A stretch of DNA of 45,243 nt from Escherichia phage vB_EcoS-CHD5UKE2. A program made the position numbers and the translations under genes. The notes beneath the pieces are model-generated. The model was not told the DNA's origin, did not search any database, and saw only the letters and a list, made by a program, of their open reading frames with translations. Positions 1 through 45,243 of the stretch are shown piece by piece (the first letter of the stretch is position 1; every line of letters starts with the position of its first letter). The DNA lies in the sequence record NC_073059.1; one strand, written 5' to 3'.

Positions 1-127
1 CCCCCGTCTAGTCTGAAAGACTGGGAGTTGTCCCGCCTGTCCCGATCGGCTGAAACCCGCGGCAGCACTGACGGGGACGGGGTGCTGTCCCGCTTTGTCC
101 CGCCCCTTGTTTGTCCCGCTTTCTGTC
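1..127. repeat. Terminal duplication: identical to 45117..45243 (assembly overlap of a circular/permuted genome, or a short direct terminal repeat)
   Basis: Direct comparison of window start and end; 127/127 identical, both truncated by the window edges. Confidence 0.9.
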
Positions 128-300
128 CCGTTTGTTTTATGCACGAAATCTGAATAGGTATGCATATTTAGGGGGCGGGACAGATCGGGACGTCCCGCTT
201 GTCCCACTTTGAGTTTATGCAATGAAAGTGAGTAGATATGCAGTTTTACAGGGGGCGGGGCAAAACGGGACAGATCGGGACGTCCCGCTTGTCCCGCTTC
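1..300. repeat. Iteron-bearing structured element, copy A, 3' part: GTCCCGC direct repeats about one helical turn apart, inverted CGGGAC/GTCCCG palindromes, TTATGCA boxes
   Basis: GTCCCGC/GTCCCG at about 30, 39, 98, 108, 122, 191, 201, 281, 291; palindrome cgggacgtcccg at about 185..196 and 275..286; AT-rich spacers with TTATGCA. Confidence 0.8.
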
Positions 301-301
301 A

Positions 302-5857: not shown

Positions 5858-5887
5858 TTGCAATCCTGGTATTGGTTGCACTATATT
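5858..5887 (+). promoter_or_regulatory. Sigma70-like promoter for the plus-strand island
   Basis: -35 TTGCAA (5858..5863), 18-bp spacer containing ATTGGTTGCA, -10 TATATT (5882..5887); second TTGGTTGCA at 5886..5894. Confidence 0.5.
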
Positions 5888-5922
5888 GGTTGCACACCAA
5901 CAGAGATATGAAGGAAAACAAA

Positions 5923-10684: not shown

Positions 10685-12070
10685 TTAGTAGAAGTCTACA
10701 GTTGGAACAACGGCGATAGGTCGAATCACTGGGAACAGGTGCGCAACAGGGTAGCCCGCGGCATCGTTCATGTGGTCCACACCGGCGGTTTTATCCGGCT
10801 CGCCTTTCTTCAGGTCATAAACCTGCTGTTCCAGACATTTCGCTAGTGTAGGGCATTTATCCAGGTTGACAAAATACTGGCGCACGCCCTTCGAGTTGCA
10901 CATCATCGTATTCATCGCGATCAATCTGTCTTTCACGGGCGGGTTAACGCTGTCATACTCCACCTCGAAGCCAGCGTCTTCCAGTTGCGCGATATCGGAC
11001 GACGATGCGTTAACAGTCTTACGAGACTTGCCACTGCTATCCGGGTAAACGACGACCCGACCGGCAGCACAATGATCGGGGTAGCGCTCCTCGATCGCCT
11101 CAATCATAGCCGGGGTATCAAACAGGTCCACGAATTCATCCACTGCGTGAATCTCGTCGCGGAACTCCTTGTTCTCGGTAGTGTGCTGCCGTCTGACGTA
11201 CACAACCGCCGCCATTTTCGTTACGTTAAAGTCCATACCGATAATCAGCGTATCATCCGGATGCACTTCCTCGGTGCTGGCGTTCTCTTCTCGGTTAAAC
11301 ATCTTATAGACCGCGCCAGACGTAAGGTTGACAAACAGGCCGTTCAGGTATGCGTCAATCAGGTTTGCCGGGTACTGGCTTCGCAGCGTGTCGATAAAGT
11401 CTGCCGGTAAGTGGTGGTTGTCGGTAGTCTTTGCCCTGATCAAACGTTTTTGGCTATCCTTCTCCACTTCGAAAATCTGATACATCGCCCGGAAGCCTTC
11501 CGGCGTGGATACGATGACAAACTGGCGCACCAGGCCCGCACGCAGACGACCAAGCAATTTGTGGTAAGCCGCCATAGCGACGTCTTGCTTCGTGGTGTCG
11601 AACTCATCGGCAACAATCCACGCGGCGTTAACCCCGATCAGGCGGGTGTAGTTCTCCATTGACTCACAAATAACGCGCGTCCATTTGCCTTTCACCAGCA
11701 CGCTGTAAATTTTATCTTGCTTGTTGAACTTCCACCGGAATCCAGCCTCGTCGAAAGCCTTCTCAAGCTCCGGGTACATGATTTTAACAAGGAGTGGAAT
11801 AGTCGGTTCGGTCACGATGCCATCATGACCAGGGTTAAGTGTAAGAAGCTGGATGACCTTACGCGCCGCGACCCATGACTTTCCGCCACCGAAGCCGGAG
11901 CAAAGGCCGAGGATTTTAGTCTTAGTGTCGCGCAGTAATTCCACCTGGTGCGGTAGGCAATCAGGCTGATACAGGCGGACGGCCTGCGCAACGCGCGTAG
12001 GGCGTGGCGGACGGTTGCGCTTTGCGATCGAGCGCTCAAGTGCGCGGTGTTCTGCCGCATAGTTACGCAT
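10685..12070 (-). CDS. Terminase large subunit
   Basis: 461 aa; Walker A-like GFGGGKS near the N-terminus; overlaps the small-subunit stop. Confidence 0.7.
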   Translation of the reverse strand: MRNYAAEHRALERSIAKRNRPPRPTRVAQAVRLYQPDCLPHQVELLRDTKTKILGLCSGFGGGKSWVAARKVIQLLTLNPGHDGIVTEPTIPLLVKIMYPELEKAFDEAGFRWKFNKQDKIYSVLVKGKWTRVICESMENYTRLIGVNAAWIVADEFDTTKQDVAMAAYHKLLGRLRAGLVRQFVIVSTPEGFRAMYQIFEVEKDSQKRLIRAKTTDNHHLPADFIDTLRSQYPANLIDAYLNGLFVNLTSGAVYKMFNREENASTEEVHPDDTLIIGMDFNVTKMAAVVYVRRQHTTENKEFRDEIHAVDEFVDLFDTPAMIEAIEERYPDHCAAGRVVVYPDSSGKSRKTVNASSSDIAQLEDAGFEVEYDSVNPPVKDRLIAMNTMMCNSKGVRQYFVNLDKCPTLAKCLEQQVYDLKKGEPDKTAGVDHMNDAAGYPVAHLFPVIRPIAVVPTVDFY

Positions 12071-12621
12071 TATTCGCCCTGGCCTTTGCCGGTTGGCTCA
12101 ACAACGACGTCGCCGTTATCATCTTCGTCGTCATCCAGCGGAGCATCGTCACGAATGCCGTGGTTGGCTTTAAGCAGGAACGTAGCGAAGCCAGCCGCGA
12201 TGGTCACGCCGCCAGCTTCCATCAGGAAAGTTTTCTGCAACTCCATAGCGTCCGCCATCGCTTCGGCGAACTCCTCATGTGCGCGCGCCCAGCGGTACAG
12301 GCAAGCGATGCCAACGCCAATATCCGCGGCAAAGCGACCGAGAGTCGGCATCTTGTTGTGAGGGATTACTTGCGCAGCGCCCTTGTCGGAGTAGTTGATC
12401 TGCCAGGCTACGGCATCAGCAAAATAGCGGCGAAGCTGGTCACAATATACGGTGCGGTAGTCGGTCGGGCGTCCGCATTTGCCGCCTTTACGACGTTTGC
12501 CGTATTCGATCTCAGGTCCAAGATTGGTGTGTTCTGTTTGCTCGCCTGGTTTACGGCGCGGGGTAACTGCTACTCGTCCGTCCAGTTTGGCACGACGGCC
12601 TTTAACTTTGATTTCTGCCAT
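12070..12621 (-). CDS. Terminase small subunit (putative)
   Basis: Start revised to ATG 12621 (MAEIKVKGRRAKL...); basic N-terminus, HTH-like LGRFAADIGVGIACLYRWA, acidic C-terminus; stop overlaps TerL start. Confidence 0.5.
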   Translation of the reverse strand: MAEIKVKGRRAKLDGRVAVTPRRKPGEQTEHTNLGPEIEYGKRRKGGKCGRPTDYRTVYCDQLRRYFADAVAWQINYSDKGAAQVIPHNKMPTLGRFAADIGVGIACLYRWARAHEEFAEAMADAMELQKTFLMEAGGVTIAAGFATFLLKANHGIRDDAPLDDDEDDNGDVVVEPTGKGQGE

Positions 12622-12738
12622 GATATAAGCCCTTTTATGCATATGCGCCGACCATCGGCAGCATAGGAGACGGCCCAGCCATCTAAGGGGGATTATAACA
12701 GGCACAAAAAAGCCCACCAAATCGGCGGGCTGGGAGGA

Positions 12739-14090: not shown

Positions 14091-14300
14091 ATTTAATTAA
14101 TTCCTGATTAGTGGACCGTGGACAATATACCACGGTCCGTATGGCGGCGGGCTATATCAATTCGCAAATAACCATGCCGATAAAAGCCGCGGTGGTCCAG
14201 ATCGCTAATACCCAAATATCTTTACGTGCCATCTTGATTACTCCTCCAGTTGATTGGTTGCAGTATGGCCCCTGTGTTGGTTGCGAGTCAAGCAATAAAA

Positions 14301-17447: not shown

Positions 17448-17640
17448 TGTTCAATCCTCTTGTTGGTGTGCAACCAATCTAGCAGGGTGCCAGGCTGAAT
17501 GCAACCAATATTAATCACGCGTATGAAAAAGCTGATCGCTATCTGCTGCAACTGCAAACTGCATTTTTCACTTCACATAACACAACTCGCATTGGTTGCC
17601 TAGTTCATCAACAACCGCGATTCACATCATGCTGCCGTAC

Positions 17641-17850
17641 ATTATGCAATCCCGGATTTTATGCAGTCTCAGACGAGGGGGGCCAACTGACCCCCGTCTA
17701 GTCTGAAAGACTGGGGTTTGTCCCGCCTGTCCCGCTCCCTCGCAAGCCGCGTAATCCGGGGCGGGACAGGGGTGCTGTCCCGCTTTGTCCCGCCCCCTGT
17801 CTGTCCCGCTTTTTGTCCCGCTTACTTTATGCAATAAAACTGCATAACTA
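17641..17850. repeat. Iteron-bearing structured element, copy B, between primase-helicase gene and the start of the late operon
   Basis: Same conserved blocks and hairpins as copy A, divergent central spacer; followed by AT-rich tttatgcaataaaactgcataactattcactatatttacac. Confidence 0.8.
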
Positions 17851-17927
17851 TTCACTATATTTACACTACACGGCAACCAATGCGACCAGCTAAAAACACT
17901 CAATTTGGCAACCAATGCGCGCAAAAT

Positions 17928-20189
17928 TTAATCTTTCAGGTCGTCATCGGTCGCTGAAAGCGTGATTGGGATATCCGATTTGATGACCAGATTCGACGAC
18001 CCATAGATGGCCCCGGTGTGTGGATCTGTATAAAAACCGAGCACGCCGCGCTCCACCATATCGTCGATTGCCTTCGTCGATGTGCCACCTTTCGCGAGTC
18101 CAGCCTGGCGGACAATTGCCGATTTACTGAATCCAGTATGGTCCGGGTTATCTTCCATCAGTTTCTCCAGTGCCGCATAAAGCACCTTCTCTTTTTCGTT
18201 GCGCGGTCCGGCGGTGTTCTCTTCCTTAACTGCTGCCTTGCCTGCGGCCTTCGCCTGTTCAATAGCGAACGGTGCCAGGGCGACCGGTACGAGGTAAAGA
18301 GTCTCGTCGCGTGGCGTGGATGCAATTGGCTTGACGTCCCAACCGGCAACCACATCGCCGAAGTCCGGACCGGTGCTGGTGGACTGGTGGGCTTCGAACG
18401 CCTCGGACTTACGGAGATCCACCTTCACCTTGCACTTGAGCAGGACGAAGCCACGCGGCGCTTGCTTAATCCCGTTACGGGATTTTTCGTGATACAGGTT
18501 GAGTTGGCCTGGCTGGTTGTCATCCGGCTGTTCCAGGAAGAACGCAGAATCAACAGCACCATGAAGCGCGCCGGACCCGCGTGGCGATCTGCTGCCGTTT
18601 GCGCCCTTAGCCGGGTGATGGATGACGCCCGCACTGCCACCTGTATTTTCCGCAATGGCCTTCAGCGCCTTGACCACTTCGCCCATATCGCTGGCGTTGT
18701 TCTCGTCGAACGGTTTGGCATCAGCGGACCGCAGCGCTACAGTCTGGTTGAGTGAGTCGAAGGCCACCAGGCCAACCGGCTCCCCGTTAGCGGTGCGGTT
18801 GATAAAGCTGATAACTTCGCGCAAGCCTGACTTGCTGGTAATATCCCAGCCGCGTGATTGCAGATCGACAATGTGCAGCTTGTCGAGGTCGTGCTCGTAT
18901 TTAATCTGCAATGCTTCCTTACGCTGGTTGGAGGCTTCGCCACCTTCCGCATCGAAATAGAAGTTATGGCACTGGACGACCTTCGCGCCACCAAACGGAA
19001 TACCGGCAGATACGGACGCCATCTGGCCCAGCACGTAGAACGACTTACCAATGTTCGACTCACCGGCAAGATACCAGGTCGATTTGAAGTTGACCAGGCC
19101 TTCGATGATCGGGTCGTGCTTACTGAATAGTGCAACAGGTTCGTTGTCCAGGTCAGCGTCGGTGCATTCGCCGTACTCGTCGCCGTCGCCGACCGCATCA
19201 ACAATATGTTCATAGCATGATTCCACTTCCTCGTCGTCCAGTCCCGGAAGGATGGCGGCGATTTGCTTGCGTGACATGTTGTGCGGTTCAACGTTCAAGT
19301 GGTCCGGGATACCGATCAGACGTAACGCCAGGTGCTGGTGTTTGTTCAGTTCGGAACAGCACTCGTTGCCGGTGTGCATACACTTGAAACGGATCTCGCC
19401 ATCCTTAACCATGATAGCCGTCGACCCGCCGCCGCTATGCAGGTGCTCGTTCGGGCACGGCACTTCATAACCGCGACCGGATGACAGTGGTTCAAAGCCA
19501 GCCTGGAAGCACCAGTCCAGAATCCCGTCCGCCACGCCATCGTCGCCCTGGGTCAGTTCGCGGCGTACTTCCTCTTTCTCCACTCCCAGCTTGTCAGCCA
19601 GGCGAAGCAGGCGACGGACACGGGCGCGCTTGCCAGGATGACACGACACGGTAGATCCGGAATGGGGGAGGAATTGCAGGTTGTTAACGTTTTTTGTGCA
19701 ATCATCAAACGGCACGTCTTCCAGCCCCAGGTGTTTCAATAGCGCGAACTGCGCACGGCCTAAATCGGAAACATCAACCGGTTTATCAGTGAGCACCAGG
19801 AAACGGGCGCAACGTGTGCCGCCCTTCAGCGGGTGGCGGTCGCCTGTAGTGGAGTAGTAGACGTGGGATAAGCCGGATTTGCGAAAGGCACGCTTAACGC
19901 GACCGAGGGTACGGTTGTCAGTGCGGTCCAGGTCATAGAACAGTACGGAACGGACACCTACTTCCGTAGCACGACGGCCTCGGCCTTTAGTGGTGGCGAC
20001 AATGCCTTCGGCCTTGCCTTTCACCTCGTCGTATTCTTTCTTAGTCTCGTCGCCGGTAATGGTTACGCTGGATAGCTCAACGGTATCCACGACGTATTCC
20101 ATAAACTCGGCTTCAGTCATAGAATGGTTTTTAACACGCTTGCCGTACTTACCACCAACGGTGCCGAACTCAATTAAATAGTTTTTCAT
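17928..20189 (-). CDS. DNA primase / replicative helicase (RecA-like ATPase domain)
   Basis: 753 aa; Walker A GESNIGKS in the C-terminal half; Cys/His cluster CPNEHLH...C in the N-terminal half. Confidence 0.6.
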   Translation of the reverse strand: MKNYLIEFGTVGGKYGKRVKNHSMTEAEFMEYVVDTVELSSVTITGDETKKEYDEVKGKAEGIVATTKGRGRRATEVGVRSVLFYDLDRTDNRTLGRVKRAFRKSGLSHVYYSTTGDRHPLKGGTRCARFLVLTDKPVDVSDLGRAQFALLKHLGLEDVPFDDCTKNVNNLQFLPHSGSTVSCHPGKRARVRRLLRLADKLGVEKEEVRRELTQGDDGVADGILDWCFQAGFEPLSSGRGYEVPCPNEHLHSGGGSTAIMVKDGEIRFKCMHTGNECCSELNKHQHLALRLIGIPDHLNVEPHNMSRKQIAAILPGLDDEEVESCYEHIVDAVGDGDEYGECTDADLDNEPVALFSKHDPIIEGLVNFKSTWYLAGESNIGKSFYVLGQMASVSAGIPFGGAKVVQCHNFYFDAEGGEASNQRKEALQIKYEHDLDKLHIVDLQSRGWDITSKSGLREVISFINRTANGEPVGLVAFDSLNQTVALRSADAKPFDENNASDMGEVVKALKAIAENTGGSAGVIHHPAKGANGSRSPRGSGALHGAVDSAFFLEQPDDNQPGQLNLYHEKSRNGIKQAPRGFVLLKCKVKVDLRKSEAFEAHQSTSTGPDFGDVVAGWDVKPIASTPRDETLYLVPVALAPFAIEQAKAAGKAAVKEENTAGPRNEKEKVLYAALEKLMEDNPDHTGFSKSAIVRQAGLAKGGTSTKAIDDMVERGVLGFYTDPHTGAIYGSSNLVIKSDIPITLSATDDDLKD

Positions 20190-20199
20190 TGTTGTCGTC

Positions 20200-20649
20200 T
20201 CATTTAGCCCACTGGCGAATAGTAGAACGGTTGATTCCGGTCATCTCAGCTATCTGATTCCATGATAGCCCTTCCTCGCGTAGCCGCTTAACGACCGGTG
20301 CATACTTCTCTCGGGCGAGGGTCATCTCGCGTGCCGCTTCTTCTGATTTGCGCACTGCCTCGATAGCGCCGCCTTTCAACAGGTCAAGCTCGGCTTGCAT
20401 ATTGTCTCGCTCGTCCGCAAGGCCGTTATACGACTGCATGTAAAAGGATAACTTGTCCATAAGGGCCGTGATTATGTCAGATGCCGTGGTCTTATCCATC
20501 GCCAGAATATCGGCAGCTTGCTCGGCGTGCGGGATCGGGTCTGCGCAAAAATCGCCGAAGGTGATAGTCTTTCCGTCGTCCCAGGAAAGGGCGATTTGGT
20601 GAGTCCATTTCGTATGGTTCCAGCGATTTAAGGTTTCGTTAGTGCTCAT
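20200..20649 (-). CDS. HTH transcriptional regulator (putative)
   Basis: 149 aa; C-terminal HTH-like LSWNQIAEMTGINRSTIRQWAK; first gene from a strong divergent promoter. Confidence 0.5.
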   Translation of the reverse strand: MSTNETLNRWNHTKWTHQIALSWDDGKTITFGDFCADPIPHAEQAADILAMDKTTASDIITALMDKLSFYMQSYNGLADERDNMQAELDLLKGGAIEAVRKSEEAAREMTLAREKYAPVVKRLREEGLSWNQIAEMTGINRSTIRQWAK

Positions 20650-20917: not shown

Positions 20918-21433
20918 ATGTTTGAGCAAATCGTAAACCTGATCACACGCGGCGTTGTAGCACTGGAAACCATCGCTAAGCATTATGAAACTGCGGGCGC
21001 TGCCGTTGATAAACAGGAAGCGAAGAAAGCCCCGGCGAAGGGCAAGGCGAAAGAAGTAGTCGAAGATGACGATGCTGAAGACGAAGCACCGGCAAAGACC
21101 AAAAAAGCGCCCGCAAAGGGCAAGGCTAAGAAAGAAGCCGTAGAAGAAGACGACGACGCGGACGAGGAAGAAGCCCCGGCGAAATCTAAGAAAGCACCGG
21201 CGAAAGGTAAAGGCAAGAAAGATGCCGATCTGCTGAAAGAAATGCGCGACGAAATCAAGCAGTATGCCGCTATTATTGCGGGCGGTGATGACGACGACGC
21301 AAACGACGAATTTGATGATCTGCTGGAAGCGTTCGAAATTAAATCCGTTGCCAAGCTGGAAGATGACGACGTCGAAGACTTCCACAAAGATTTAAAAGAA
21401 ATCGTAGAAACGTATTTCGAATTAGAAGATTAA
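20918..21433 (+). CDS. Early protein with alternating Lys-rich (KKAPAKGKAKK) and acidic repeats
   Basis: RBS GGAG 7 nt before ATG; three APAKxKKAPAKGKxKK units separated by Asp/Glu runs; intrinsic terminator immediately downstream. Confidence 0.6.
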   Translation: MFEQIVNLITRGVVALETIAKHYETAGAAVDKQEAKKAPAKGKAKEVVEDDDAEDEAPAKTKKAPAKGKAKKEAVEEDDDADEEEAPAKSKKAPAKGKGKKDADLLKEMRDEIKQYAAIIAGGDDDDANDEFDDLLEAFEIKSVAKLEDDDVEDFHKDLKEIVETYFELED

Positions 21434-23645: not shown

Positions 23646-24377
23646 ATGGCTAAAGTCAACCTGAAAAACGTGCGCGTATGCTTCCTGAAAATTTGGGAAC
23701 GTGATACCCCTAAACAGGATGGACAAAAACCGGCATACCGTGCCGTGATTCTTCTTGATAAAGAAGATCCGCAGGTGGACAAAGTGGAAGCGGCAGCGCG
23801 CGCAGTGCTCACCGACAAGCTGAAATCCGAGAAGAACGCCGATAAGTGGATGGACCGCCACTACGCCCAGGATTCTAAGGAATGCGCAGTTCGCGACGGT
23901 GATGAGCGCGACGAAGTAACCGAAGAGTTTGAAGGCATGCTGTACATCAACGCCAAATCGTTCAAACAGCCTAACATCCAAACGTCACTGGGCGAGAAGC
24001 AGACCGAACAGGGTCTGACTATCGACGGCGACGAGATCGAAGGCCAGGAAATCTATTCCGGTTGTTATTGCAACGTGTCCCTGGATATTTGGGCGTGGAA
24101 CAACACCAACGGCAAAGGTCTAGGTGCGGGTTTGATGGGTCTTCGCTTCCGTGGTGATGGTGATTCCTTCGGTGGCGGCGGGTCTTCTTGTTCCGATGAC
24201 GACCTGGGCGACGATGACGAAGATGAAGCACCGCGCAAGGCTAAGAAGTCCAAACGTCGTGATGACGATGACGAAGACGAGGAAGACGAAAAACCTCGCA
24301 AGCGTCGCAAGTCCCGCGATGACGAAGATGAGGACGACGACGAAGACGAAGCACCACGTAAACGTCGCCGCCGTTAA
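23646..24377 (+). CDS. ssDNA-binding protein (T7 gp2.5-like / DUF2815-like), with alternating acidic/basic C-terminal repeat tail
   Basis: N-terminus MAKVNLKNVRVCF and YINAKS resemble the gp2.5-like family as I recall it; C-terminal 60 aa are three DDEDE...APRKRRK units; RBS GAGGAAATG. Confidence 0.45.
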   Translation: MAKVNLKNVRVCFLKIWERDTPKQDGQKPAYRAVILLDKEDPQVDKVEAAARAVLTDKLKSEKNADKWMDRHYAQDSKECAVRDGDERDEVTEEFEGMLYINAKSFKQPNIQTSLGEKQTEQGLTIDGDEIEGQEIYSGCYCNVSLDIWAWNNTNGKGLGAGLMGLRFRGDGDSFGGGGSSCSDDDLGDDDEDEAPRKAKKSKRRDDDDEDEEDEKPRKRRKSRDDEDEDDDEDEAPRKRRRR

Positions 24378-24606: not shown

Positions 24607-26894
24607 AAGACTTCGAACGCCTGTTTCTTGACACCGAGACATATAGCGGGGTGGACCTGAAGAAAGCAGGTGCGTATGCCTATGCAGAACACCCATCCAC
24701 CGAGATTATGATTTGCACCTACGCCATCGACGAGGGCCGCGTGCAGACATGGGACGCCACTGAATCCCCCACGATGCCGCGTGAACTGCGCAAGGCGCTA
24801 CGCCAGGTAACCCGCAAGAAAGCAAAAATAGTGATGGCTAACGGCCTCCTGTTTGACCGCCTGGTTATCCGTGAAAAGTGGGGCATCGACCTGCCGGTAA
24901 GCCAGATCGAAGATACGATGATTATGGCCTTTCGTCACGCGCTGCCGGGTGGCCTCGATATGCAATGCCAGGTGCTGGGCGTTGACGCAGAGCACGCGAA
25001 GGATAAGGCAGGCAAGGCGCTGATTAAGCGATTTTGTAAGCCGACCCCTAAGACCTACAAAATCCGCCGCTACACGCGCGAGACTCACCCTGAAGAATGG
25101 GCTAAATTCCTGCGCTATGCCGCGCTGGATATTATCGCAATGCGTGAAGTCTACTGGCGAATACCGGACTGGGGCAACTCACCGAAGGAAGATGAAATCC
25201 TGCGTATCGACCAGTTGATTAACGACCGTGGCTTCTATGTGGACGTTGACCTGGCGAACGCCGCGATCAAGGCGGTGCAGGTGCACAAAGAAGAATTGAA
25301 GGAAGAAGCCTGGGAACTGTTCGGCGGTAAACTGACCGGTAATGACTTCCTGCCAATCCTGCGTGATATTGCCCCGGCGTTCACCATTCACAACGCGCAG
25401 AAATCCACGCTGAATGATTTGCTGGAAGATCCAGACTTCCCCGACGAGGGCAAAGTGCTTATTGAAATGCGCCTCGGCGCGTCATCAACGGCATCGACTA
25501 AATACAATCCGCTCGTCAATGGTCTTTCTGCCGATGGTCGCCGCCGTGGTTGTCTTCAGTATGGTGGGGCAAAGCGCACACTACGCTGGGCCGGTAAAGG
25601 CTTTCAGCCTCAAAACCTGGCACGTGGCGAGTACAGTGATGACCACGAAGGGAAGATTAAGCGCCGCGAAGGTGAGAGCGACGTCTCGTTTTGGGTACGG
25701 TCGCACATGCTCACCAACGGCATCAACTCCCTGTTACGCGGGACCGCGCACTGGGCGTATGACATATCGAAGCTAACCGCCTCGACCGTTCGCGGGTGCA
25801 TTATCCCGGCTAAGGGCAAGAAGTTTGTTGTAGCGGACTACTCCAACGTGGAAGGGCGTGGCCTTGCCTGGATCGCTGGCGAGAAAACCGCGCTTATGGT
25901 GTTTAAGGCCGGACGCGATATCTATTGTGAAACTGCCGGTAAGATGTTTGGCCTTGACCCGGACTACATCAAAGCCAACCGCAAAGACCTACGCCAGATT
26001 GGTAAGGCGTGTGAATTGGGACTGGGCTATGGTGGCGGCGTCGCGGCGTTCTTGCAGTTTGCTAAAAACCTGGGCCTCGACCTGTACGCAATGGCTGACG
26101 TCATGAAGGGAACATTCCCCGATCATATTTGGGCGGCGGCTAAACGCGGTTATGAGTTTGCCCGCATCAACGAAGCGAAGCGCCCGCCGAAGACCGGCAA
26201 GAAAGACGAGCGCCCGACTTACATACTGCCTAAAAACGTGTGGTTGACCTGCGACGCGATCAAACGTATGTGGCGTGAATCTCACCCGAAGACCGTAGCC
26301 TTTTGGGCCGAGCTTGAGGAGGCGGTGTTATGTGCGATACGCAATCCAGGTAAGGCATACTGGGCTGGCGCGAACGTTCGCCCGGATGGCAAGAAAGCGC
26401 TCAAGATTGTGCGCACGAAGGCGAAGCACGACCCCACCTTTGACGAGGAACGCGACGACCCGAACGCCGCGGGCTGGTGGCTGAAGGTTGAGTTGCCGTC
26501 AGGGCGAATCATGAGCTACCCCGGAATCGCGCTGTCTGTCACTACCGAGATTGACGAAGACACCGGCAAGAAGCGCACCAGTACCCGCATCAAATACCAG
26601 GGCGAGAATCAGACGACGCGCCAGTGGGGATTCCAATATACCTACGGCGGCAAACTTACGGAGAACATCGTACAGGCGTTGTGCCGCGATATTCTCGCAT
26701 GGTCCATGCCTGGTGTTGAAGCTGCGGGCTATGAAATCGTCCTGTCAGTGCACGATGAATTGATCACCGAAGTGCCGGACACCGACGATTACACGACCGA
26801 GGAGCTTTGCGCGCTGATGTGTGACCTGCCTATATGGGCGAAAGGTTTCCCACTTGCCGCCGAAGGCGACATCATGTATCGGTATAGGAAGTAA
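24603..26894 (+). CDS. DNA polymerase, family A, with 3'-5' exonuclease domain
   Basis: 763 aa; Exo I-like LDTETYS; Pol A motif B-like RQIGKACELGLGYGGG and motif C VHDELI. Confidence 0.8.
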   Translation: MKDFERLFLDTETYSGVDLKKAGAYAYAEHPSTEIMICTYAIDEGRVQTWDATESPTMPRELRKALRQVTRKKAKIVMANGLLFDRLVIREKWGIDLPVSQIEDTMIMAFRHALPGGLDMQCQVLGVDAEHAKDKAGKALIKRFCKPTPKTYKIRRYTRETHPEEWAKFLRYAALDIIAMREVYWRIPDWGNSPKEDEILRIDQLINDRGFYVDVDLANAAIKAVQVHKEELKEEAWELFGGKLTGNDFLPILRDIAPAFTIHNAQKSTLNDLLEDPDFPDEGKVLIEMRLGASSTASTKYNPLVNGLSADGRRRGCLQYGGAKRTLRWAGKGFQPQNLARGEYSDDHEGKIKRREGESDVSFWVRSHMLTNGINSLLRGTAHWAYDISKLTASTVRGCIIPAKGKKFVVADYSNVEGRGLAWIAGEKTALMVFKAGRDIYCETAGKMFGLDPDYIKANRKDLRQIGKACELGLGYGGGVAAFLQFAKNLGLDLYAMADVMKGTFPDHIWAAAKRGYEFARINEAKRPPKTGKKDERPTYILPKNVWLTCDAIKRMWRESHPKTVAFWAELEEAVLCAIRNPGKAYWAGANVRPDGKKALKIVRTKAKHDPTFDEERDDPNAAGWWLKVELPSGRIMSYPGIALSVTTEIDEDTGKKRTSTRIKYQGENQTTRQWGFQYTYGGKLTENIVQALCRDILAWSMPGVEAAGYEIVLSVHDELITEVPDTDDYTTEELCALMCDLPIWAKGFPLAAEGDIMYRYRK

Positions 26895-26898
26895 GATT

Positions 26899-27090
26899 AT
26901 GAAAGCAGAATTAAGCATAATGCGCGCTGGCGCGACGGACGATGACGAGATTCGCATCGTCCTTAGACTGGAACGTGGCAAGACCATCACGGCACTTGTC
27001 ACGCCTGAAAACCTGGCGCTGGCGCTAACCGGTCGATCGGACATACCGGTAGACCTCCGTCTGCGTAACGTGGAGTTGCAAACCAAATGA
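26899..27090 (+). CDS. Hypothetical small protein
   Basis: ATG 26899 with RBS AGGAAG; 63 aa. Confidence 0.4.
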   Translation: MKAELSIMRAGATDDDEIRIVLRLERGKTITALVTPENLALALTGRSDIPVDLRLRNVELQTK

Positions 27091-27365
27091 CACCCGAAGG
27101 CAAGATACAAAGTCACCTGATGCGACGGGTGAAAGAGGTCGGCGGATTCTGCCGTAAACTGGCATGGGAGGGGCGCGCAGGTGCGCCCGACCTGATTATT
27201 ATCATCAACGGCATCATAGTATTCGTCGAAGTGAAGCGCCCCGGCGGAAAACCGAAGCCGCACCAGGTGCGAGAACATGAGCGAATGGCCCGCCGCGGTG
27301 CTGACGTTCGCGTTATTGACAACATAGCCGACTGCGATTTATTGGTTGCTGAATTGGTCGCGTAG
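27087..27365 (+). CDS. VRR-NUC domain nuclease
   Basis: 92 aa; PDLIIIINGIIVFVEVKRPGGKPKPHQ matches the PD-(D/E)xK VRR-NUC pattern; ATGA coupling to the upstream gene. Confidence 0.6.
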   Translation: MTPEGKIQSHLMRRVKEVGGFCRKLAWEGRAGAPDLIIIINGIIVFVEVKRPGGKPKPHQVREHERMARRGADVRVIDNIADCDLLVAELVA

Positions 27366-27405
27366 CGGTATAGTGTGCCGGTTAGCCCTATCGAGGATTT
27401 TAGAA

Positions 27406-27579
27406 ATGATTGAAGAAAAACGTTGCAGTAACTGCGGCTGCATCAAGCCGCTATCCCAGTTCCACAAATACACCGGAAAGACTGCGCGCAGTCCAGACGG
27501 GCATCGGGCCGAGTGCAAATCGTGCCGCAATAAGAAAGAACGTGATCGGCAGCGCCGCTATCGCGCAGAACAAGAATAA
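27406..27579 (+). CDS. Zinc-ribbon small protein
   Basis: ATG 27406; CSNCGC ... CKSCRNK four-Cys arrangement; 57 aa. Confidence 0.4.
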   Translation: MIEEKRCSNCGCIKPLSQFHKYTGKTARSPDGHRAECKSCRNKKERDRQRRYRAEQE

Positions 27580-27615
27580 TCAATACGGCGGGCTTGTCCC
27601 GCCATTTTTGGAGGC

Positions 27616-27840
27616 ATGACGATGAAAGAACATTACCGACTCACCAAGCTGGGCGAGTGCAAACCTGGCGATCGCGTATGGTTTATCGCAGGCATGAATT
27701 ACCCGCTGCCGTTGACAGTGTGCTGGCAGAAGTTTAAGAGCTTCCGCGCGACCGGTGTGCACATTGGACACGCCACCAACTACGACGCCACAAAGAGGAA
27801 TTGGAACAGTGAAACCGAAGTCTGGAAAAAGGCGGAATAA
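27616..27840 (+). CDS. Hypothetical protein
   Basis: 74 aa ORF directly upstream of the helicase gene. Confidence 0.4.
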   Translation: MTMKEHYRLTKLGECKPGDRVWFIAGMNYPLPLTVCWQKFKSFRATGVHIGHATNYDATKRNWNSETEVWKKAE

Positions 27841-29269: not shown

Positions 29270-29961
29270 TTATCTGGTCATTATTTGACGGCAGCGGCTT
29301 GATGATAGAGCGCGCTGCCGAGATGGGGCATAAATGCTACTGTTTCAACTACTCGGAAGCCGATCACGGGTCTTACCTTGACTACCGGATTTATGGTCGC
29401 GGTATCCGCTATCGTAACGAGTTTATCGATCTGGACTTCGTGGACCGCGCGATGAATGGCGATTTCGGCACGCCGGATATTATCTACGCGTTTCCGCCGT
29501 GTACGGATCTGGCGGTGAGCGGTGCGCCAGCTTTCCCGTGCAAGCGTGCGAAAGACCCCGCCTTTCAGCTTAAGGCAGTGCGCACCGCGAAGATTGCCGC
29601 TTACCTGGGTGACTTCTTTGAAGTGCCATATATGATTGAGAATCCGCGCAGTGTGCTATCCACCCAGTGGCGCAAGCCAGACCACTCGTTTGATCCGTGG
29701 GAGTATGGCGGCTATCTGCCGGAGGATGACGTACATCCGTTGTTCCCGGAATACATCAACGACCGCGATTCATATCCAAAGCTGACCTGTTTATGGGCTG
29801 GCAATGGCTTTCGTATGCCGGAGAAAAAGCCGGTATTCGTTGAAAAAGGGTACTCGAAGCAGTATAGTCGCCTCGGTGGCAAATCTGCCCGCACCAAATT
29901 AATACGGTCGCTCACTCCGCGCGGCTTCGCAATAGCAGTCAATGAGGAAAATTTAAAATGA
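29266..29961 (+). CDS. Short DNA (cytosine-5)-methyltransferase-like protein
   Basis: GTG start overlapping the helicase stop, RBS AAGGTG; motif I-like LFDGSG, motif IV-like FPPCTDLAVSG (catalytic Cys retained), motif VI-like MIENPR; only 231 aa. Confidence 0.45.
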   Translation: MIIWSLFDGSGLMIERAAEMGHKCYCFNYSEADHGSYLDYRIYGRGIRYRNEFIDLDFVDRAMNGDFGTPDIIYAFPPCTDLAVSGAPAFPCKRAKDPAFQLKAVRTAKIAAYLGDFFEVPYMIENPRSVLSTQWRKPDHSFDPWEYGGYLPEDDVHPLFPEYINDRDSYPKLTCLWAGNGFRMPEKKPVFVEKGYSKQYSRLGGKSARTKLIRSLTPRGFAIAVNEENLK

Positions 29962-30281
29962 ACACTACATTCGAAGCCATCGACTTCTCGGTCGCAATGA
30001 CTAACCAGTTATTCACCTATGACAGCAAAACCGGCGTCATCCGTCTGAAGTCCACCGGCTGCAAGATTGGCAACCTTAACACTGCCGATGGCGGTACGCG
30101 TATCGAATGCAACGGCAAGAAGCTGTCTGGCGCGCGCGTGGCGTGGATTATCGAAACCGGCAATACAATCCCTCCAGGCTTCGCAGTTGTGTGTCGCCAG
30201 CGCACGCCAGGGCACTACGGCAACCGAATGAGCAACCTTTATCTGGTAGATGTAGCGCGCGACCCGAATTTTTATGAATAA
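29958..30281 (+). CDS. Small HNH-endonuclease-like protein (weak)
   Basis: Spacing of Gly, His and Asn residues (…RVAWIIETGNTIPPGFAVVCRQRTPGHYGNRMSNL) loosely resembles phage HNH_3 domains. Confidence 0.3.
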   Translation: MNTTFEAIDFSVAMTNQLFTYDSKTGVIRLKSTGCKIGNLNTADGGTRIECNGKKLSGARVAWIIETGNTIPPGFAVVCRQRTPGHYGNRMSNLYLVDVARDPNFYE

Positions 30282-30318
30282 ATTGGTTGCGTAATTAGAT
30301 TGGTTGCATTATCTTAAG

Positions 30319-30350
30319 GGTGTCCGGTTGGACGCCCTTTTTAATACCTG
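30319..30350 (+). terminator. Terminator-like hairpin in the leader of the following gene
   Basis: gggtgtcc-ggtt-ggacgccc followed by TTTTTAAT, sitting between TTGGTTGCG/TTGGTTGCA boxes and the RBS. Confidence 0.4.
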
Positions 30351-31503: not shown

Positions 31504-31970
31504 AACTACTGATTTGTGATCTGGATGGCGTTATTAATGGTTCAAGTGATGCGCGTGCTGACCTGGTGCCCGGCATAAAAACCAAATCAACATTTTGGGC
31601 GAAGTGGCACAAAGCACACGTACGCGAAGACCTTAACATGGATATGTTGCCGCTGCTGCGCATGTACAAAGGGCAAGGCTTCGAGATAGCGTATCTGACT
31701 AACCGGCAGCGCGAATGCTGGGATACGACCGCCAAGCAATTGGAAGTATTCCCGACGGGCCGGTTGTTCATGCGCCACATGCTGGACGACACCCCACCGC
31801 CAGAATTTAAAGCATGCGCGGTGGTCAAAATGGTTTGCTATGCGGACGTGTCCGAACTGGTCATCATTGAAGACTGCGCTAAGAATATTGACGCCATCCG
31901 TCGGGCGTGCAGCGATATGGTCCCTAAAATTTATTCTATAAACGTAGCAAAATTTACTTGCAACCAATAG
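31500..31970 (+). CDS. HAD-superfamily phosphatase (possible nucleotidase)
   Basis: N-terminal LICDLDGVI (HAD motif I DxDG); 156 aa. Confidence 0.5.
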   Translation: MKLLICDLDGVINGSSDARADLVPGIKTKSTFWAKWHKAHVREDLNMDMLPLLRMYKGQGFEIAYLTNRQRECWDTTAKQLEVFPTGRLFMRHMLDDTPPPEFKACAVVKMVCYADVSELVIIEDCAKNIDAIRRACSDMVPKIYSINVAKFTCNQ

Positions 31971-31987
31971 GTTGGTTGCACTATAGT
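31958..31987 (+). promoter_or_regulatory. Sigma70-like promoter with perfect inverted repeat TGCAACCAA-N5-TTGGTTGCA
   Basis: -35 TTGCAA (31958..31963), 18-bp spacer, -10 TATAGT (31982..31987); the palindrome spans both. Confidence 0.55.
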
Positions 31988-32668: not shown

Positions 32669-33244
32669 ATGTACGGCGAATACGAAATAACCGGTAAACA
32701 ATTCCACATAGCGGCAATGTTGGCGAGCGTCGAGTTTGACCAGTGGCGATTAAAGTCTGACGCGTGCAAGCAAAGCCGACTTGTCGGTGTGCTGGGCGAG
32801 ATGTTTGCTGGCATGTACCTTGAAGGGCAGGCAGGCGGGCGTAGTTGTATCCCGCAAGGCTTGCTTATGCGTACCGGCCTGTTTAGCGCCAATACTATCG
32901 ACCGCGGCGATATTATCATGGTCGGTAAACGCAAGGTTAAGTCCGGCCCCGACTTCCGTGAGCACATGATTGATGCTGTCTGGACCTACGAGGTCAAAGC
33001 CACCAGCGGCATCCGTCGCGGACTGGTAGAGGCGCGTTGCGCTCGCGAGTATCTCACCCGTCGGGTTGCCGGTGTTATCCTGGTGGGCGTATCGTTCGGG
33101 CAACATAGCGCACACGGCGTGATTGAGGATATTGCGGAACCATACGTGATTGTCAACGACTGGCCTCTGGTGGAAGTGGAGGGCAAGGAATATTACGAAA
33201 GCCCGTTAGTACGGCGCAAAATGGACTGGGAAAACTCAAACTAA
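32669..33244 (+). CDS. Hypothetical protein, possible PD-(D/E)xK-type nuclease
   Basis: 191 aa; weak D...EVK-like motif (DAVWTYEVKAT); RBS GAGGG. Confidence 0.35.
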   Translation: MYGEYEITGKQFHIAAMLASVEFDQWRLKSDACKQSRLVGVLGEMFAGMYLEGQAGGRSCIPQGLLMRTGLFSANTIDRGDIIMVGKRKVKSGPDFREHMIDAVWTYEVKATSGIRRGLVEARCAREYLTRRVAGVILVGVSFGQHSAHGVIEDIAEPYVIVNDWPLVEVEGKEYYESPLVRRKMDWENSN

Positions 33245-33248
33245 AAAA

Positions 33249-33264
33249 GGGGCCGTATGGCCCC
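33249..33264. terminator. Bidirectional terminator between the convergent early block and the tail-fibre gene
   Basis: ggggcc-gtat-ggcccc flanked by an A-run and a T-rich run. Confidence 0.55.
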
Positions 33265-33270
33265 TTCTCA

Positions 33271-34860
33271 TTACTTACCTTCCAGCTTTTCTACTTTCTG
33301 CAACAGGTGAACGAAGGCGGCGCATAGATCCATCAACAGCACGTTACTGTCAAGCGACAGTACATCGTCGGTGTATCCGATCTCCTTTTGCTCGACAATC
33401 TCGTTCCCTTCCTCGTCCACGCCAACAACAACGTCCTCGTAGATTCCGTGTCCTGGCAGCAAGTGCACATATTCCGGGTCAATCATGGCCAGGTCCTGCG
33501 CGATAAGGCCGTAACGCTGTACGTCCGACTCCTTATACTTAAACATAGCCGGTAGCCATTGCCGTACTCGGTTGTAACTTTCCGCGCCGTCCGTGTATTT
33601 GATTTCTTTCTTCACGTCCCGGTCTGATAGCGGTGCTTTCTGGAACTCCGCCGACGATGGGTTGCCGCTGTTACCCTGAATCAGACGCCCGTCCGGCAGG
33701 AAGCGGAATAGCGCCTCAGTTACCCCACTCTTCCACGCGTGGATCCGGTAGTCTGACATGTGGGTGTCACCCGCACGCACAATTCCTGCGCGTGTCCAGT
33801 CGGCGTACCATTTATGCATGGTGAAGCCTACCCAACTGTCGATTCCCATCGAGGCGTTTGATAGAATTAAGCCGTTAGCCTCCACTTCATTGAATGTTAA
33901 TGATTTGCCACCGTTCAGGCGTAATGTTGCGTGTTTAACGTTACTGTCATCGCCCACCCCCAGAATGTTGCGCGCGGTGTACTTGTCGGCAACGTCCGCC
34001 AGGTTCTGCGACTTCTGCATGAACTTAGTGGGGTCGATTGAGTTTTTGAAGCCTTCGGCTTCGTCGCGGTATCCCTGCGCTGCATCTCGGGCCGCTTGTG
34101 CGTCAGTCTTCGCCGTGTTGGCCTGATCTCGAATAACGCCAGTGTCAGTCTTAATCTGGTTGGTCTGGTCCTTGATGGCCTGCGTATCGGTCTTAATCTG
34201 GTCGGTTTGCGTCTTGATCGTATTGGTGGCGTCGTGGATAGCCTGCGTATCAGTCTTAATCTGGTTGGTTTGCGTCTTGATGGTATTGGTGGCGTCGTGG
34301 ATAGCCTGCGTATCAGTCTTAATCTGGTTGGTTTGCGTCTTGATGGTATTAGTATCGTTCTTGAAGCCTTCGGCCTCGTCGCGGTATCCTTTCGCTGCGA
34401 CCTCAGATGCGGCGGCTTGTTGTTGCAGGTTGAGCATTTCCACCGGGTCGATCTGCTTCATTAGCTGCGACAGGTAGCCCCACGACATACCCTGCATCAC
34501 TGTGCCGTTCGGTAACGTAACTGTGATTTCTTCAGCGTCGCCGAAGATTGCACGCCAGTTGTTCTCGTCCGCAATAAGCATACGCAGTGCTTTCTGTGCC
34601 TGGACTGTTACGCCCATCGTTGCCAGCGACATGGTATCGCGCGCAACGCCATCCCATGCGAGGCCGGATGCCGTTGGGCCGTCAAACGGCAGCACCAAAG
34701 TAAGCCCGGTGTTGCTTTCGATAGATTCAATCGCGATAGTGTAGGGGACTTGCCCCACTACGACAGAAAGGAAATCACCGGCTTTGAACGCCGAAAACGT
34801 CGTACCGGTCCCCGTTACCGACCGGCTGTTATTGGTTAATAAGATAGTACCCGCTGCCAT
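33271..34860 (-). CDS. Tail fibre protein with C-terminal intramolecular-chaperone (peptidase S74-like) domain
   Basis: 529 aa; RBS AGAGGA; three 21-aa shaft repeats (TQTNQIKTDTQAIHDATNTIK); C-terminal region (KKEIKYTD...GLIAQDL...LEGK) resembles the autoproteolytic chaperone of endosialidase/T5-type fibres. Confidence 0.55.
   Translation of the reverse strand: MAAGTILLTNNSRSVTGTGTTFSAFKAGDFLSVVVGQVPYTIAIESIESNTGLTLVLPFDGPTASGLAWDGVARDTMSLATMGVTVQAQKALRMLIADENNWRAIFGDAEEITVTLPNGTVMQGMSWGYLSQLMKQIDPVEMLNLQQQAAASEVAAKGYRDEAEGFKNDTNTIKTQTNQIKTDTQAIHDATNTIKTQTNQIKTDTQAIHDATNTIKTQTDQIKTDTQAIKDQTNQIKTDTGVIRDQANTAKTDAQAARDAAQGYRDEAEGFKNSIDPTKFMQKSQNLADVADKYTARNILGVGDDSNVKHATLRLNGGKSLTFNEVEANGLILSNASMGIDSWVGFTMHKWYADWTRAGIVRAGDTHMSDYRIHAWKSGVTEALFRFLPDGRLIQGNSGNPSSAEFQKAPLSDRDVKKEIKYTDGAESYNRVRQWLPAMFKYKESDVQRYGLIAQDLAMIDPEYVHLLPGHGIYEDVVVGVDEEGNEIVEQKEIGYTDDVLSLDSNVLLMDLCAAFVHLLQKVEKLEGK
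34155..34356. repeat. In-frame tandem DNA repeats (63-bp unit, about 3 copies) inside the tail-fibre gene
   Basis: 34198..34260 and 34261..34323 are near-identical 63-mers; partial copies flank them. Confidence 0.8.
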
Positions 34861-36131: not shown

Positions 36132-36135
36132 AAAA

Positions 36136-36151
36136 GGGGCCGGATGGCCCC
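36136..36151. terminator. Bidirectional terminator between the convergent J-like gene and the plus-strand insert
   Basis: ggggcc-ggat-ggcccc with flanking A and T runs. Confidence 0.55.
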
Positions 36152-36158
36152 TTCTCAT

Positions 36159-42337: not shown

Positions 42338-42373
42338 GAAAAAGCCCCCACGTTGTATGTGAGGGCCATTTTA

Positions 42374-45019: not shown

Positions 45020-45243
45020 TATGCAGTCCCCTTTTTTTTTATGCAGTTGCCGATTGACATTGTATCAGCGAATTTCAAACAAACCTTATTCAGTCTCAGA
45101 CGAGGGGGGCCATTAACCCCCGTCTAGTCTGAAAGACTGGGAGTTGTCCCGCCTGTCCCGATCGGCTGAAACCCGCGGCAGCACTGACGGGGACGGGGTG
45201 CTGTCCCGCTTTGTCCCGCCCCTTGTTTGTCCCGCTTTCTGTC
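45020..45243. repeat. Iteron-bearing structured element, copy A, 5' part (continues at 1..300 across the wrap); lies between tail chaperone and tape measure genes
   Basis: Blocks shared with copy B at 17664..17822: cagtctcagacgaggggggcca, acccccgtctagtctgaaagactggg, ttgtcccgcctgtcccg, ggggtgctgtcccgctttgtcccgcccc, tgtcccgcttt; TTATGCAG boxes at about 45047 and 45057. Confidence 0.8.

Follow-up and report, generated by a model that had tools for sequence, protein, structure and literature searches.

Two related repeat elements of Dhillonviruses as a candidate two-site replication-origin system

Dhillonviruses carry two copies of a structured, non-coding repeat element, and we think, at roughly even odds (a probability of about 0.5), that these copies form an iteron-type two-site replication-origin system that resembles oriL and oriR of phage SPP1. 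The elements were analyzed in Escherichia phage vB_EcoS-CHD5UKE2 (sequence record NC_073059.1), and the window referred to below is this whole record of 45,243 nucleotides. Copy B lies after the stop codon of the replicative helicase-primase gene (17928, minus strand), and copy A lies between the gene of the tail assembly chaperone (616-993 plus a frameshift extension) and the start of the tape-measure gene (45019), which are the neighbors that an earlier note on this DNA had named. That note had treated replication origins, terminase recognition sites and binding arrays for a late regulator as equally possible, but the evidence separates these three readings. The origin reading gains support, because the module follows the helicase-primase gene in relatives in which this protein is down to 44% identical, and because of an AT-rich tract, a predicted winged helix and an SPP1-like layout. 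An array for a late regulator may coexist with an origin, as copy A has an invariant extended -10 element and copy B is flanked by ATTGGTTGC motifs.

Anatomy of the two elements

The unit that is shared by both copies comprises 45086-45116 plus 1-164 in copy A, which spans the ends of the record, and 17659-17854 in copy B. The two-copy element of the earlier note is thus real, whereas its length of about 160 bp has to be extended to about 195 bp. The repeat finder gave identities of 80-96% over this unit, with 80% for 1-164 versus 17691-17854, 83% for 1-127 versus 17691-17817, and 96% at the hairpin flank (45086-45112 versus 17659-17685). On the plus strand, the core consists of one or two TTATGCA boxes, an extended hairpin, the repeats and an AT-rich tract, in this order (Table 1). 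The two copies are separated by 17.7 kb on a circle of 45.1 kb.

The repeats are present in clear excess over chance. GTCCCGC occurs 25 times in the genome, compared to an expectation of 8.4 +/- 3.3, and none of 100 shuffled sequences reached this number. After removal of four matches that are duplicated by the overlap of the record ends, 15 of the 21 unique copies are located in the two regions. The TTATGCA box is found 15 times (6.3 +/- 2.4 expected), and eight of these boxes are within the two regions. Each copy of the element has six or seven GTCCCGC repeats, and their spacings of 9, 48, 10, 16 and 12 bp are equal in copies A and B. Within the 48-bp interval, a single repeat is inverted, and pairing with its neighbor yields a perfect 9-bp hairpin (GCGGGACAG/CTGTCCCGC). 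The arrays of direct repeats that had been described earlier are therefore present, with the correction that one repeat in each core is inverted.

Both copies contain several hairpin-forming inverted repeats. The two hairpins that had been noticed before could be confirmed, and together they constitute a single imperfect hairpin of about 50 nt (17664-17713 in copy B, 45091-45139 in copy A). The consensus of this core hairpin is CAGTCT-CAGACG(A)GGGGGG, a loop of 7-8 nt, and CCCCCGTCT-AGTCTGAAAGACTG. Folded as DNA, the extended hairpin has a minimum free energy of -12.6 to -14.3 kcal/mol with z-scores of -2.8 to -3.4, irrespective of the strand.

The AT-rich tract adjoins the repeats. In copy B, positions 17823-17862 have an AT content of 78%, which is rank 2 among all 40-bp windows of the genome (genome mean 45.7%), and the corresponding tract of copy A (131-170) belongs with 72% to the top 15 of these windows. 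The palindrome TTATGCA-N7-TGCATAA at 17827-17847 was found to vary in a peculiar way, as its spacer reads ATAAAAC in some genomes and the reverse complement GTTTTAT in others (L003-L073). Such a flip is expected from hairpin-mediated template switching and suggests that the palindrome may extrude in vivo.

Copy A continues beyond the shared core into two tandem modules, each of which consists of TTATGCA, a GAATAGnTATGCA box and a palindrome of the form GGGAC GGGAC / GTCCC GTCCC. Box and repeats of these modules are inverted relative to copy B, and the modules include GGGACGTCCC palindromes.

Conservation within Dhillonvirus

When other phages were searched for the element, as the earlier note had suggested, both copies were found in 157 of 157 related GenBank phage records. 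Alignments were made of 14 A copies and 16 B copies (30 copies in all). In these, the hairpin stems and the repeats are nearly invariant, and the variation is found in the hairpin loop, the spacers and the central segment; in copy B, the repeats keep their positions in all 16 genomes while the spacers vary. The mean pairwise identity of the non-coding core among 14 genomes is 0.78-0.90 for copy B and 0.81-0.95 for copy A, which equals that of the flanking helicase-primase, tape-measure and chaperone genes, whereas a small open reading frame (ORF) beside copy B reaches only 0.24-0.6. The pattern of the substitutions suggests that repeats and stems are under purifying selection.

Two ORFs that run over the elements, 17622-17924 (minus strand, 100 aa) and 222-425 (plus strand, 67 aa), were considered as coding regions and rejected. 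Single-base indels between genomes break their frames, and the elements are therefore treated as non-coding and the ORFs as spurious. Several GenBank records have “hypothetical proteins” annotated over both stretches.

The possibility of a generic leader sequence, which the earlier note had raised as an objection, was also checked: neither 5,426 complete E. coli genomes nor 72,556 plasmids contained a copy of the element. Being conserved in the genus and absent from these collections, the element represents a lineage-specific cis element rather than a generic leader or mobile repeat. A scan of viral contigs with the hairpin consensus returned Dhillonvirus and the Edwardsiella phage eiAU, and outside this group only chance GC hairpins.

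As an observation, the elements are not new. The record of Sodalis phage SO-1 (GQ502199) already annotates both as repeat_region, namely “region A” at 11214-11597 and “region B” at 40178-40657, describes the repeats as direct, inverted and palindromic, and states the similarity to region B. Other GenBank records mark small repeat_regions or a weak terminator at the elements. Our literature searches found no paper that describes or tests regions A and B. The elements are real, strongly conserved and uncharacterized. As a separate observation, an insertion of about 54 bp is found near the helicase-primase stop (at the equivalent of about 17900) in L011, L013, L014, L033, L052 and L072, and it contains an extra GCAACCAAT motif and the palindrome ATATGGGAATTCCCATAT.

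The module in other genera and lineages

The placement of the element can be followed beyond the genus. In eiAU (Eiauvirus), the helicase-primase of which is 46% identical, long non-coding gaps are found at both positions, after the helicase-primase gene (26894-27792) and between the chaperone and tape-measure genes (42120-43015 plus 1-222). These gaps share a block of about 60 bp of their own, AAATCGCCCCG..GCCCGCCCC.GGGGCA.TTATTGATTTA, and the repeats are CGCCCCG. The gap at the tape-measure side contains a hairpin that is homologous to the one of Dhillonvirus (GAGACGGGGGTG/ATCAGC/CACCCC-T-CGTCCTC) and has the same bulged T, and its lower stems have been replaced on both arms (AGAGGA:TCCTCT and CTTCGT:ACGAAG). 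In the Cornellvirus FSL SP-031 (44% identity), 6 of 8 GGGGAGA copies lie within 150 bp 3' of the helicase-primase stop. This phage has two GAATAGTTAT(G/T)C boxes there, one of which is identical to the copy B box at 16 of 16 positions; this box of copy B, GTGAATAGTTATGCAG, thus has an identical counterpart in FSL SP-031, and it is met again in the metagenomic lineages L179 and L178.

Nine metagenomic lineages were identified by their helicase-primase homologues (44-67% identity), and all of them have a non-coding gap of 350-650 bp after this gene. Several lineages keep the order of the parts, which is box, G-rich repeats, small hairpin and G6/C6 hairpin, and the repeats are specific for the lineage. 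In lineage L156 (67%), both the hairpin and the repeat type GCGGGAC are retained. In L179 (45%), the parts follow one another in the same order; this lineage has nine CGGACAA repeats, the small hairpin AGTCT-AA-AGACT and a G5/C6 hairpin, and its enclosing stem has changed from CAGTCT:AGACTG to AAGTC:GACTT. The repeats of L178 (46%), GGGACA/GGACA, are found in both orientations, its boxes are oriented the opposite way, and the lower stem of its G6/C6 hairpin is CGAGGA:TCCTCG. GGGAT(C) repeats are found in L159 and L160, and TTGCGA(GT) repeats in L157 and L158.

The module is not universal in Guernseyvirinae, as Kagunavirus and Jerseyvirus (31-33% identity in the helicase-primase) have no non-coding gap downstream of the gene. 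Copy A could be traced less far than copy B, because the search with the tail-chaperone protein retrieved close relatives only, so that this copy is untraced in the distant metagenomic lineages. From these comparisons, we conclude that the module is tied to the 3' flank of the helicase-primase gene, whichever genes come next, that the repeats drift by lineage, and that the hairpin keeps its apex while the lower stems change on both arms. Repeats and boxes are found in either orientation, with flips between lineages, and recognition is therefore more likely on duplex DNA than on RNA.

The helicase-primase and other candidate repeat binders

The helicase-primase is a single polypeptide that combines a helicase core with a predicted C-terminal winged helix. 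The AAA_25 domain covers residues 356-530, and the core is RepA/RecA-like with a weak match to 1g8y; the N-terminal 317 aa have no significant match in Pfam. Sequence searches with the C-terminal domain in Pfam and the PDB gave nothing significant, so that the winged helix was identified by fold comparison only. A homology search with the C-terminal 194 aa alone gave no match, whereas the full-length search retrieved homologues. Within Dhillonvirus, the C-terminal tail is conserved at 85-99%, compared to 79-87% for the whole protein.

The start of the predicted recognition helix reads (S/T/N)-T-(K/T) in all lineages with GCGGGAC repeats, whereas lineages that have other repeats show RRP, RYK or Y(K/G)K. 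This fits a co-evolution of winged helix and repeats, although phylogeny confounds the pattern. An alternative candidate is a helix-turn-helix (HTH) protein, the gene of which opens the helicase-primase operon. In L178, however, the small upstream HTH protein belongs to the HTH_3/31 family and not to HTH_23/sigma-r4; as L178 keeps GGGAC-type repeats despite this different family, the observation argues against the HTH protein as the binder. We thus regard it, from these family assignments, as the weaker candidate in comparison to the winged helix of the helicase-primase.

A two-site origin and how it may work

Several features are those of an iteron origin. Short repeats are clustered with fixed spacings in both copies, AT-rich tracts adjoin the arrays, and copy B starts 74 bp past the stop codon of the helicase-primase gene, a placement that recurs in eiAU, FSL SP-031 and the nine metagenomic lineages. 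We propose that the primary origin would be copy B, which directly follows the helicase-primase gene, and that the GTCCCGC repeats would be iterons bound by the phage initiator, most probably by the C-terminal winged helix of the helicase-primase itself. This binding, assisted by transcripts that read through from the early operon, would open the very AT-rich TTATGCA tract beside the repeats, so that the conserved extended hairpin could extrude, and the helicase-primase would then load and prime at the melted copy B. Copy A would be a second site for the same protein and could be a second origin. Alternatively, as proposed for oriR of SPP1, the bound copy A could be a barrier that stalls the fork and causes the switch to concatemer synthesis. 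In this scheme, it is the protein binding, the identity of the binder, the melting and the replication activity that we infer.

A number of points weigh against an origin. The cumulative GC skew has its turning points near 21 kb and 33 kb, at changes of the gene direction, and at neither element. The spacings of the repeats, 9-16 bp, are not strictly helical. The Cornellvirus FSL SP-031 has no second copy at the tape measure, and a second copy is thus not universal. Copy B lies at the early/late boundary and copy A has a conserved putative promoter and a weak terminator-like palindrome, so that both look like boundaries of transcription units. With regard to the skew, it follows the direction of transcription, which makes GC-skew mapping of an origin uninformative here, and since copy A also carries a probable promoter of the tape-measure operon, origin and transcription functions may coexist.

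All these elements can be joined into a more far-reaching model, which we regard as doubtful. It supposes a self-contained initiator, in which the winged-helix tail would recognize the origin and helicase and primase would be provided by the same protein. Copy B would fire theta replication, and copy A would be a programmed site of fork arrest and recombination that leads to concatemers, with its extra inverted repeat modules belonging to the fork-arrest role. The extruded hairpin would be the site of loading and priming and at the same time the pattern that is recognized by hairpin-sensing defences such as P2 OLD and Lamassu. Escape mutants of HK578 also speak for an origin as such: it has been described that HK578 escapes the P2 OLD defence by a point mutation located within the helicase-primase or by a deletion in the operon promoter, and OLD has been proposed to sense single-stranded DNA hairpins at iteron origins, which is demonstrated for lambda only (bioRxiv 10.64898/2026.07.10.737580). 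Copies A and B are the obvious candidates for the OLD signal in HK578, and the hairpin-sensing part of the far-reaching model, if true, would explain the escape through helicase-primase mutations.

Transcription signals and the boundary alternative

The main alternative is that the elements are control regions at the boundaries of transcription units and that their repeats bind a phage activator or repressor that times the late operons, which we consider possible without being probable. Copy B would then head the block of lysis, packaging and head genes and copy A the block of tape-measure and tail-tip genes, and the hairpins would be weak terminators or processing sites.

A motif, ATTGGTTGC(A) or in its other form GCAACCAAT, is of relevance for this explanation. 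It occurs in 17 exact copies that are nearly all intergenic, often paired, and overlap with sigma-70-like -35/-10 elements. Sites include 5871-5893, 14253-14284, 17470-17509, 17873-17916, 20842, 27341-27361, 30282-30307, 31960-31979 and 34878, and copy B, between the early helicase-primase operon and the next gene block, is flanked by these operator-like motifs on both sides. The relatives have lineage variants of the form GCnnCCAAC (GCGGCCAAC, GCTGCCAAC, GCAGCCAAC and GCAACCAAC). The motif is distinct from the GTCCCGC system and probably serves the phage's own transcription regulator as its operator. The recognizable promoter at copy B lies about 130 bp beyond the hairpin and has this different motif, which argues against the boundary explanation.

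At copy A, the extended -10 element TGATACAAT is invariant in 14 genomes while the neighboring bases vary. It has no recognizable -35 element and was not listed by the simple sigma-70 scan, which requires one. The tape-measure and tail-tip genes probably have their own promoter there, as suggested by this conservation; the predicted transcription start site is near 45052 on the minus strand. The position of the -10 element directly downstream of the array without a -35 element would suit a dependence on an activator. In eiAU, the gap at this position contains a clear terminator that follows the chaperone genes, together with clustered GCAACCAA promoter/operator motifs, and this also favors the boundary explanation. 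Against it stands that across lineages the module accompanies the helicase-primase gene at its 3' end, irrespective of the genes that follow, and that the tail operon of the Cornellvirus runs without a copy A.

As to termination, simple scans detected neither a sigma-70 promoter nor an intrinsic terminator in the shared core. The main hairpin has no T-run, as the next bases are TGAGACTG in the sense and AGTCTGAA in the antisense direction, and it thus lacks the signature of an intrinsic terminator. The only candidate, a weak one, is GGGAC..GTCCCGTTTT on the chaperone side of copy A. In favor of a boundary, the record MK373790 annotates a weak terminator of inverted repeats that consists of the last palindrome of copy A with TTTT.

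It is improbable, in our view, that the elements act as a cis-acting leader RNA, for example in antitermination as known for lambda nutL/nutR or HK022 putL/putR, with one such leader for each late unit. The two copies have the same orientation relative to the genes, a multi-stem structure is conserved with changes on both arms between genera (eiAU, L178, L179), and the 331-nt sense RNA folds with a z-score of -3.0, all of which would be expected from a leader RNA. An RNA signal, however, would not tolerate repeats and boxes that occur in both orientations and flip between lineages. No promoter is recognizable upstream of the Dhillonvirus copy A, the sole conserved promoter being downstream of the hairpin, and as the stems are invariant within the genus, there is no within-genus covariation. 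A known RNA family was also sought over the whole window and rejected, as Rfam 15 gave no match at gathering thresholds and the only chance match scored 20.7 bits, compared to 82 required.

Genome organization, assembly ends and packaging

Megablast and blastn searches identified the window as the complete and circularly assembled genome of a Dhillonvirus, that is, of the HK578/SO-1-like virulent coliphages. The closest matches, with 96-99% identity (upper values), are vB_EcoS-101114BS4, WF5505 and Bas83, and relative to the SO-1 record the window is reverse-complemented. Read along the minus strand, the order is the HTH gene (20649-20200), helicase-primase (20189-17928), copy B, small ORFs, the lysis genes, an exonuclease-like gene, terS (12720-12070), terL, portal, head and tail genes, chaperone (993-616 plus extension), copy A, tape measure (45019-42374) and tail tip. 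The replication genes run in the opposite direction from about 20.9 kb.

The ends of the record overlap by 127 bp, and 127 is the usual largest k-mer of SPAdes. Since the identity is exact and ends at base 128, the overlap results from a circular k-mer assembly and is not a physical terminal repeat. The true circle has 45,116 bp with the assembly junction inside copy A, and the extent of copy A in the earlier note (45020..45243 + 1..300) hence counted these 127 bp twice. One IMG/VR contig (L167) and the GenBank record of eiAU also break inside region A, and repeat-induced assembly breaks are the best explanation for this.

These shared breaks could also be taken as a sign of packaging sites (pac or cos) or physical genome ends that are bound by the small terminase subunit, and small-terminase binding sites, for example SPP1 pac and P1 pac, typically contain repeat arrays. 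We nevertheless consider this explanation, which the earlier note had listed as terminase sites at the genome ends, very improbable. A true terminal repeat was rejected because of the exact k-mer length of the overlap, the element is internal in most GenBank records, and the published analyses of termini place none in either copy. The distance from copy B to the terS gene (12070-12720) is 5 kb, and in relatives the module adjoins the helicase-primase gene and not terS. PhageTerm analyses indicated headful, permuted packaging for Opt-212 (PMC9022532) and BF9 (PMC10059673), and for EE09 a 10-nt 5' cos, ATCTTAAGGG (PMC10673088). The latter sequence is found once in the window, at 30311-30320, between two ATTGGTTGC motifs and just downstream of an HNH gene (29958-30281). 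The cos of EE09 conflicts with the headful packaging of the other Dhillonviruses, and it could be a nick or cut site of the HNH protein rather than a true cos.

That the elements are merely a duplicated selfish or neutral repeat, such as a miniature mobile element or recombination scar without phage function, is hardly credible, for although the unit is palindrome-rich and present twice, and the same variants in A and B copies across genomes hint at exchange between them, 157 genomes and a second genus have the unit fixed at both positions, the spacers vary whereas repeats and stems do not change, and the E. coli genomes and plasmids searched contain no copy.

Other features of the window

Within an ORF of the tail-fibre region (33271-34860, minus strand, 529 aa), positions 34106-34400 contain at least six copies of a periodic repeat of 21/42/63 bp (GTCTTAATCTGGTTGGT...), probably a repetitive coiled-coil or fibre segment. 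GA-rich repeats (GAAGACGACGA, AAGGCTAAGAA) at 21016-21204 and 24204-24355, at or near the ends of two plus-strand ORFs, encode low-complexity tails that are acidic and lysine-rich. A terminator-like hairpin, TAAAAAAGGGGCCGnATGGCCCCTTCTCATT, is present in two copies with 73% identity (33242-33308 and 36129-36195) at the ends of convergent gene blocks.

Table 1. Coordinates of the repeat elements and associated features in the window
Feature	Position	Strand	Basis or remark
Copy B core: hairpin, GTCCCGC array, AT-rich box tract	17659-17854	+	80-96% identical to copy A
Two direct TTATGCA boxes, promoter-distal side of the copy B hairpin	17642-17665	+	
Extended hairpin of copy B: CAGTCT-CAGACGA-G6 / loop / C5-GTCT-AGTCTGAAAGACTG	17664-17713	.	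fold z -2.8 to -2.9, both strands
Copy B array: six direct GTCCCGC at 17720, 17729, 17777, 17787, 17803, 17815	17720-17821	+	
Copy B array, single inverted repeat	17761-17767		
AT-rich tract of copy B: palindrome TTATGCA-N7-TGCATAA, then box TGCATAACTATTCAC	17823-17862	.	candidate DNA-unwinding element
Copy A core, first part: hairpin and start of repeat array	45086-45243	+	45117-45243 duplicates 1-127
Copy A core, continuation	1-164	+	repeats and AT-rich TTATGCA tract at 131-170
Copy A repeats	30, 39 (GTCCCGA), 74-78 (inverted GGGAC), 87, 97, 113, 125 (GTCCCGT)	+	
Copy A extension: two tandem modules of ~90 bp	128-300	+	176-209 vs 266-299 at 97%, spacing 90
Terminal overlap	1-127, identical to 45117-45243	.	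exact identity, ends at base 128
Extended -10 promoter element TGATACAAT	45059-45067	-	~40 nt upstream of tape-measure ATG (45019)
Two TTATGCAGT boxes adjoining/overlapping the tape-measure start codon	45019-45045	+	
Sigma-70-like promoter of the next gene block, TTGCAT-17-TAGATT, with two overlapping ATTGGTTGCA operator-like motifs; outside the repeated element	17470-17509	-	
Two GCAACCAAT motifs between helicase-primase stop and copy B; separate regulatory motif	17873-17916	+	
Replicative helicase-primase, 753 aa, RepA-like AAA_25 core; proposed initiator	17928-20189	-	Pfam AAA_25 E 1.8e-19; PHROG 3228
C-terminal winged-helix domain, residues ~665-735; proposed repeat-binding module	17985-18197	-	fold comparison (predicted)
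HTH protein (149 aa) encoded at the start of the helicase-primase operon; alternative candidate for repeat binding	20200-20649	-	HTH_23 and Sigma70_r4 matches

Significance

Dhillonviruses, among them HK578, Bas14-18 and the SECphi phages, now serve as standard test phages in work on anti-phage defence. The analysis yields two candidate sites, short and sharply delimited, and one candidate binding domain. With these, one can ask at which place and by what means replication begins in this large group of virulent enterobacterial siphoviruses, whether a two-site design in the style of oriL and oriR has arisen independently in phages of Gram-negative bacteria, and whether OLD-type sensors detect the origin hairpins in HK578. 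The practical value would be modest and would lie in ori-trap plasmids and in a safer genome engineering that spares these regions. If the elements are only transcription signals, the finding is an ordinary one.

Comparison with known systems

The closest parallel is SPP1, a virulent pac siphovirus of about 44 kb with oriL in its initiator gene and oriR interrupting the order of the late structural genes. Both SPP1 origins are made up of direct repeats together with an AT-rich unwinding element and are bound by gp38, and oriR is bracketed by transcription signals (PMC6316719). It has been proposed that gp38 at oriR stalls the fork and triggers the switch from theta to sigma replication (PMC3485210). 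The likeness lies in two related sites with repeats and AT-rich sequence, one at the initiator gene and one within the late structural genes; they are about 13 kb apart on the SPP1 circle (PMC6316719), compared to 17.7 kb here. The elements of Dhillonvirus share no sequence or protein homology with SPP1. The phage SPP1 uses gp38 as a separate initiator, gp39 as loader and gp40 as DnaB-type helicase together with the host primase, whereas the Dhillonvirus candidate is a single RepA-like protein with a winged-helix tail. Furthermore, oriL is inside gene 38 while copy B is located just after its gene, the extended hairpin has no described counterpart in SPP1, and the origin function is demonstrated in SPP1 and inferred only in Dhillonvirus.

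The alpha protein of the satellite phage P4 unites primase, helicase and a C-terminal winged-helix origin-binding domain in one polypeptide, and it binds short repeats in ori and in crr, the latter consisting of directly repeated units of about 120 bp. These crr units resemble the two 90-bp modules of copy A. The resemblance to the P4 system as a whole is functional only. The alpha protein belongs to another primase/helicase family, whereas the core here is the RepA-like AAA_25, preceded by the N-terminal part that found no match in Pfam; the repeats are unrelated and there is no shared sequence. The P4 origin-binding domain is also absent from the top 50-60 fold matches listed for the winged helix.

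The origin of lambda, with four iterons for the O protein and an AT-rich region, differs in that there is only one origin, which lies inside the O gene, in that its 19-bp iterons are palindromic, and in the use of the host DnaB; in Dhillonvirus, there are two sites, and their 7-bp repeats are mostly direct. The lambda origin resembles these sites in the arrangement of TCCC-core repeats beside an AT-rich tract, in the transcriptional activation through the region that is proposed for them, and in iterons that are able to form hairpins of single-stranded DNA, the structure that has recently been proposed as the signal for OLD.

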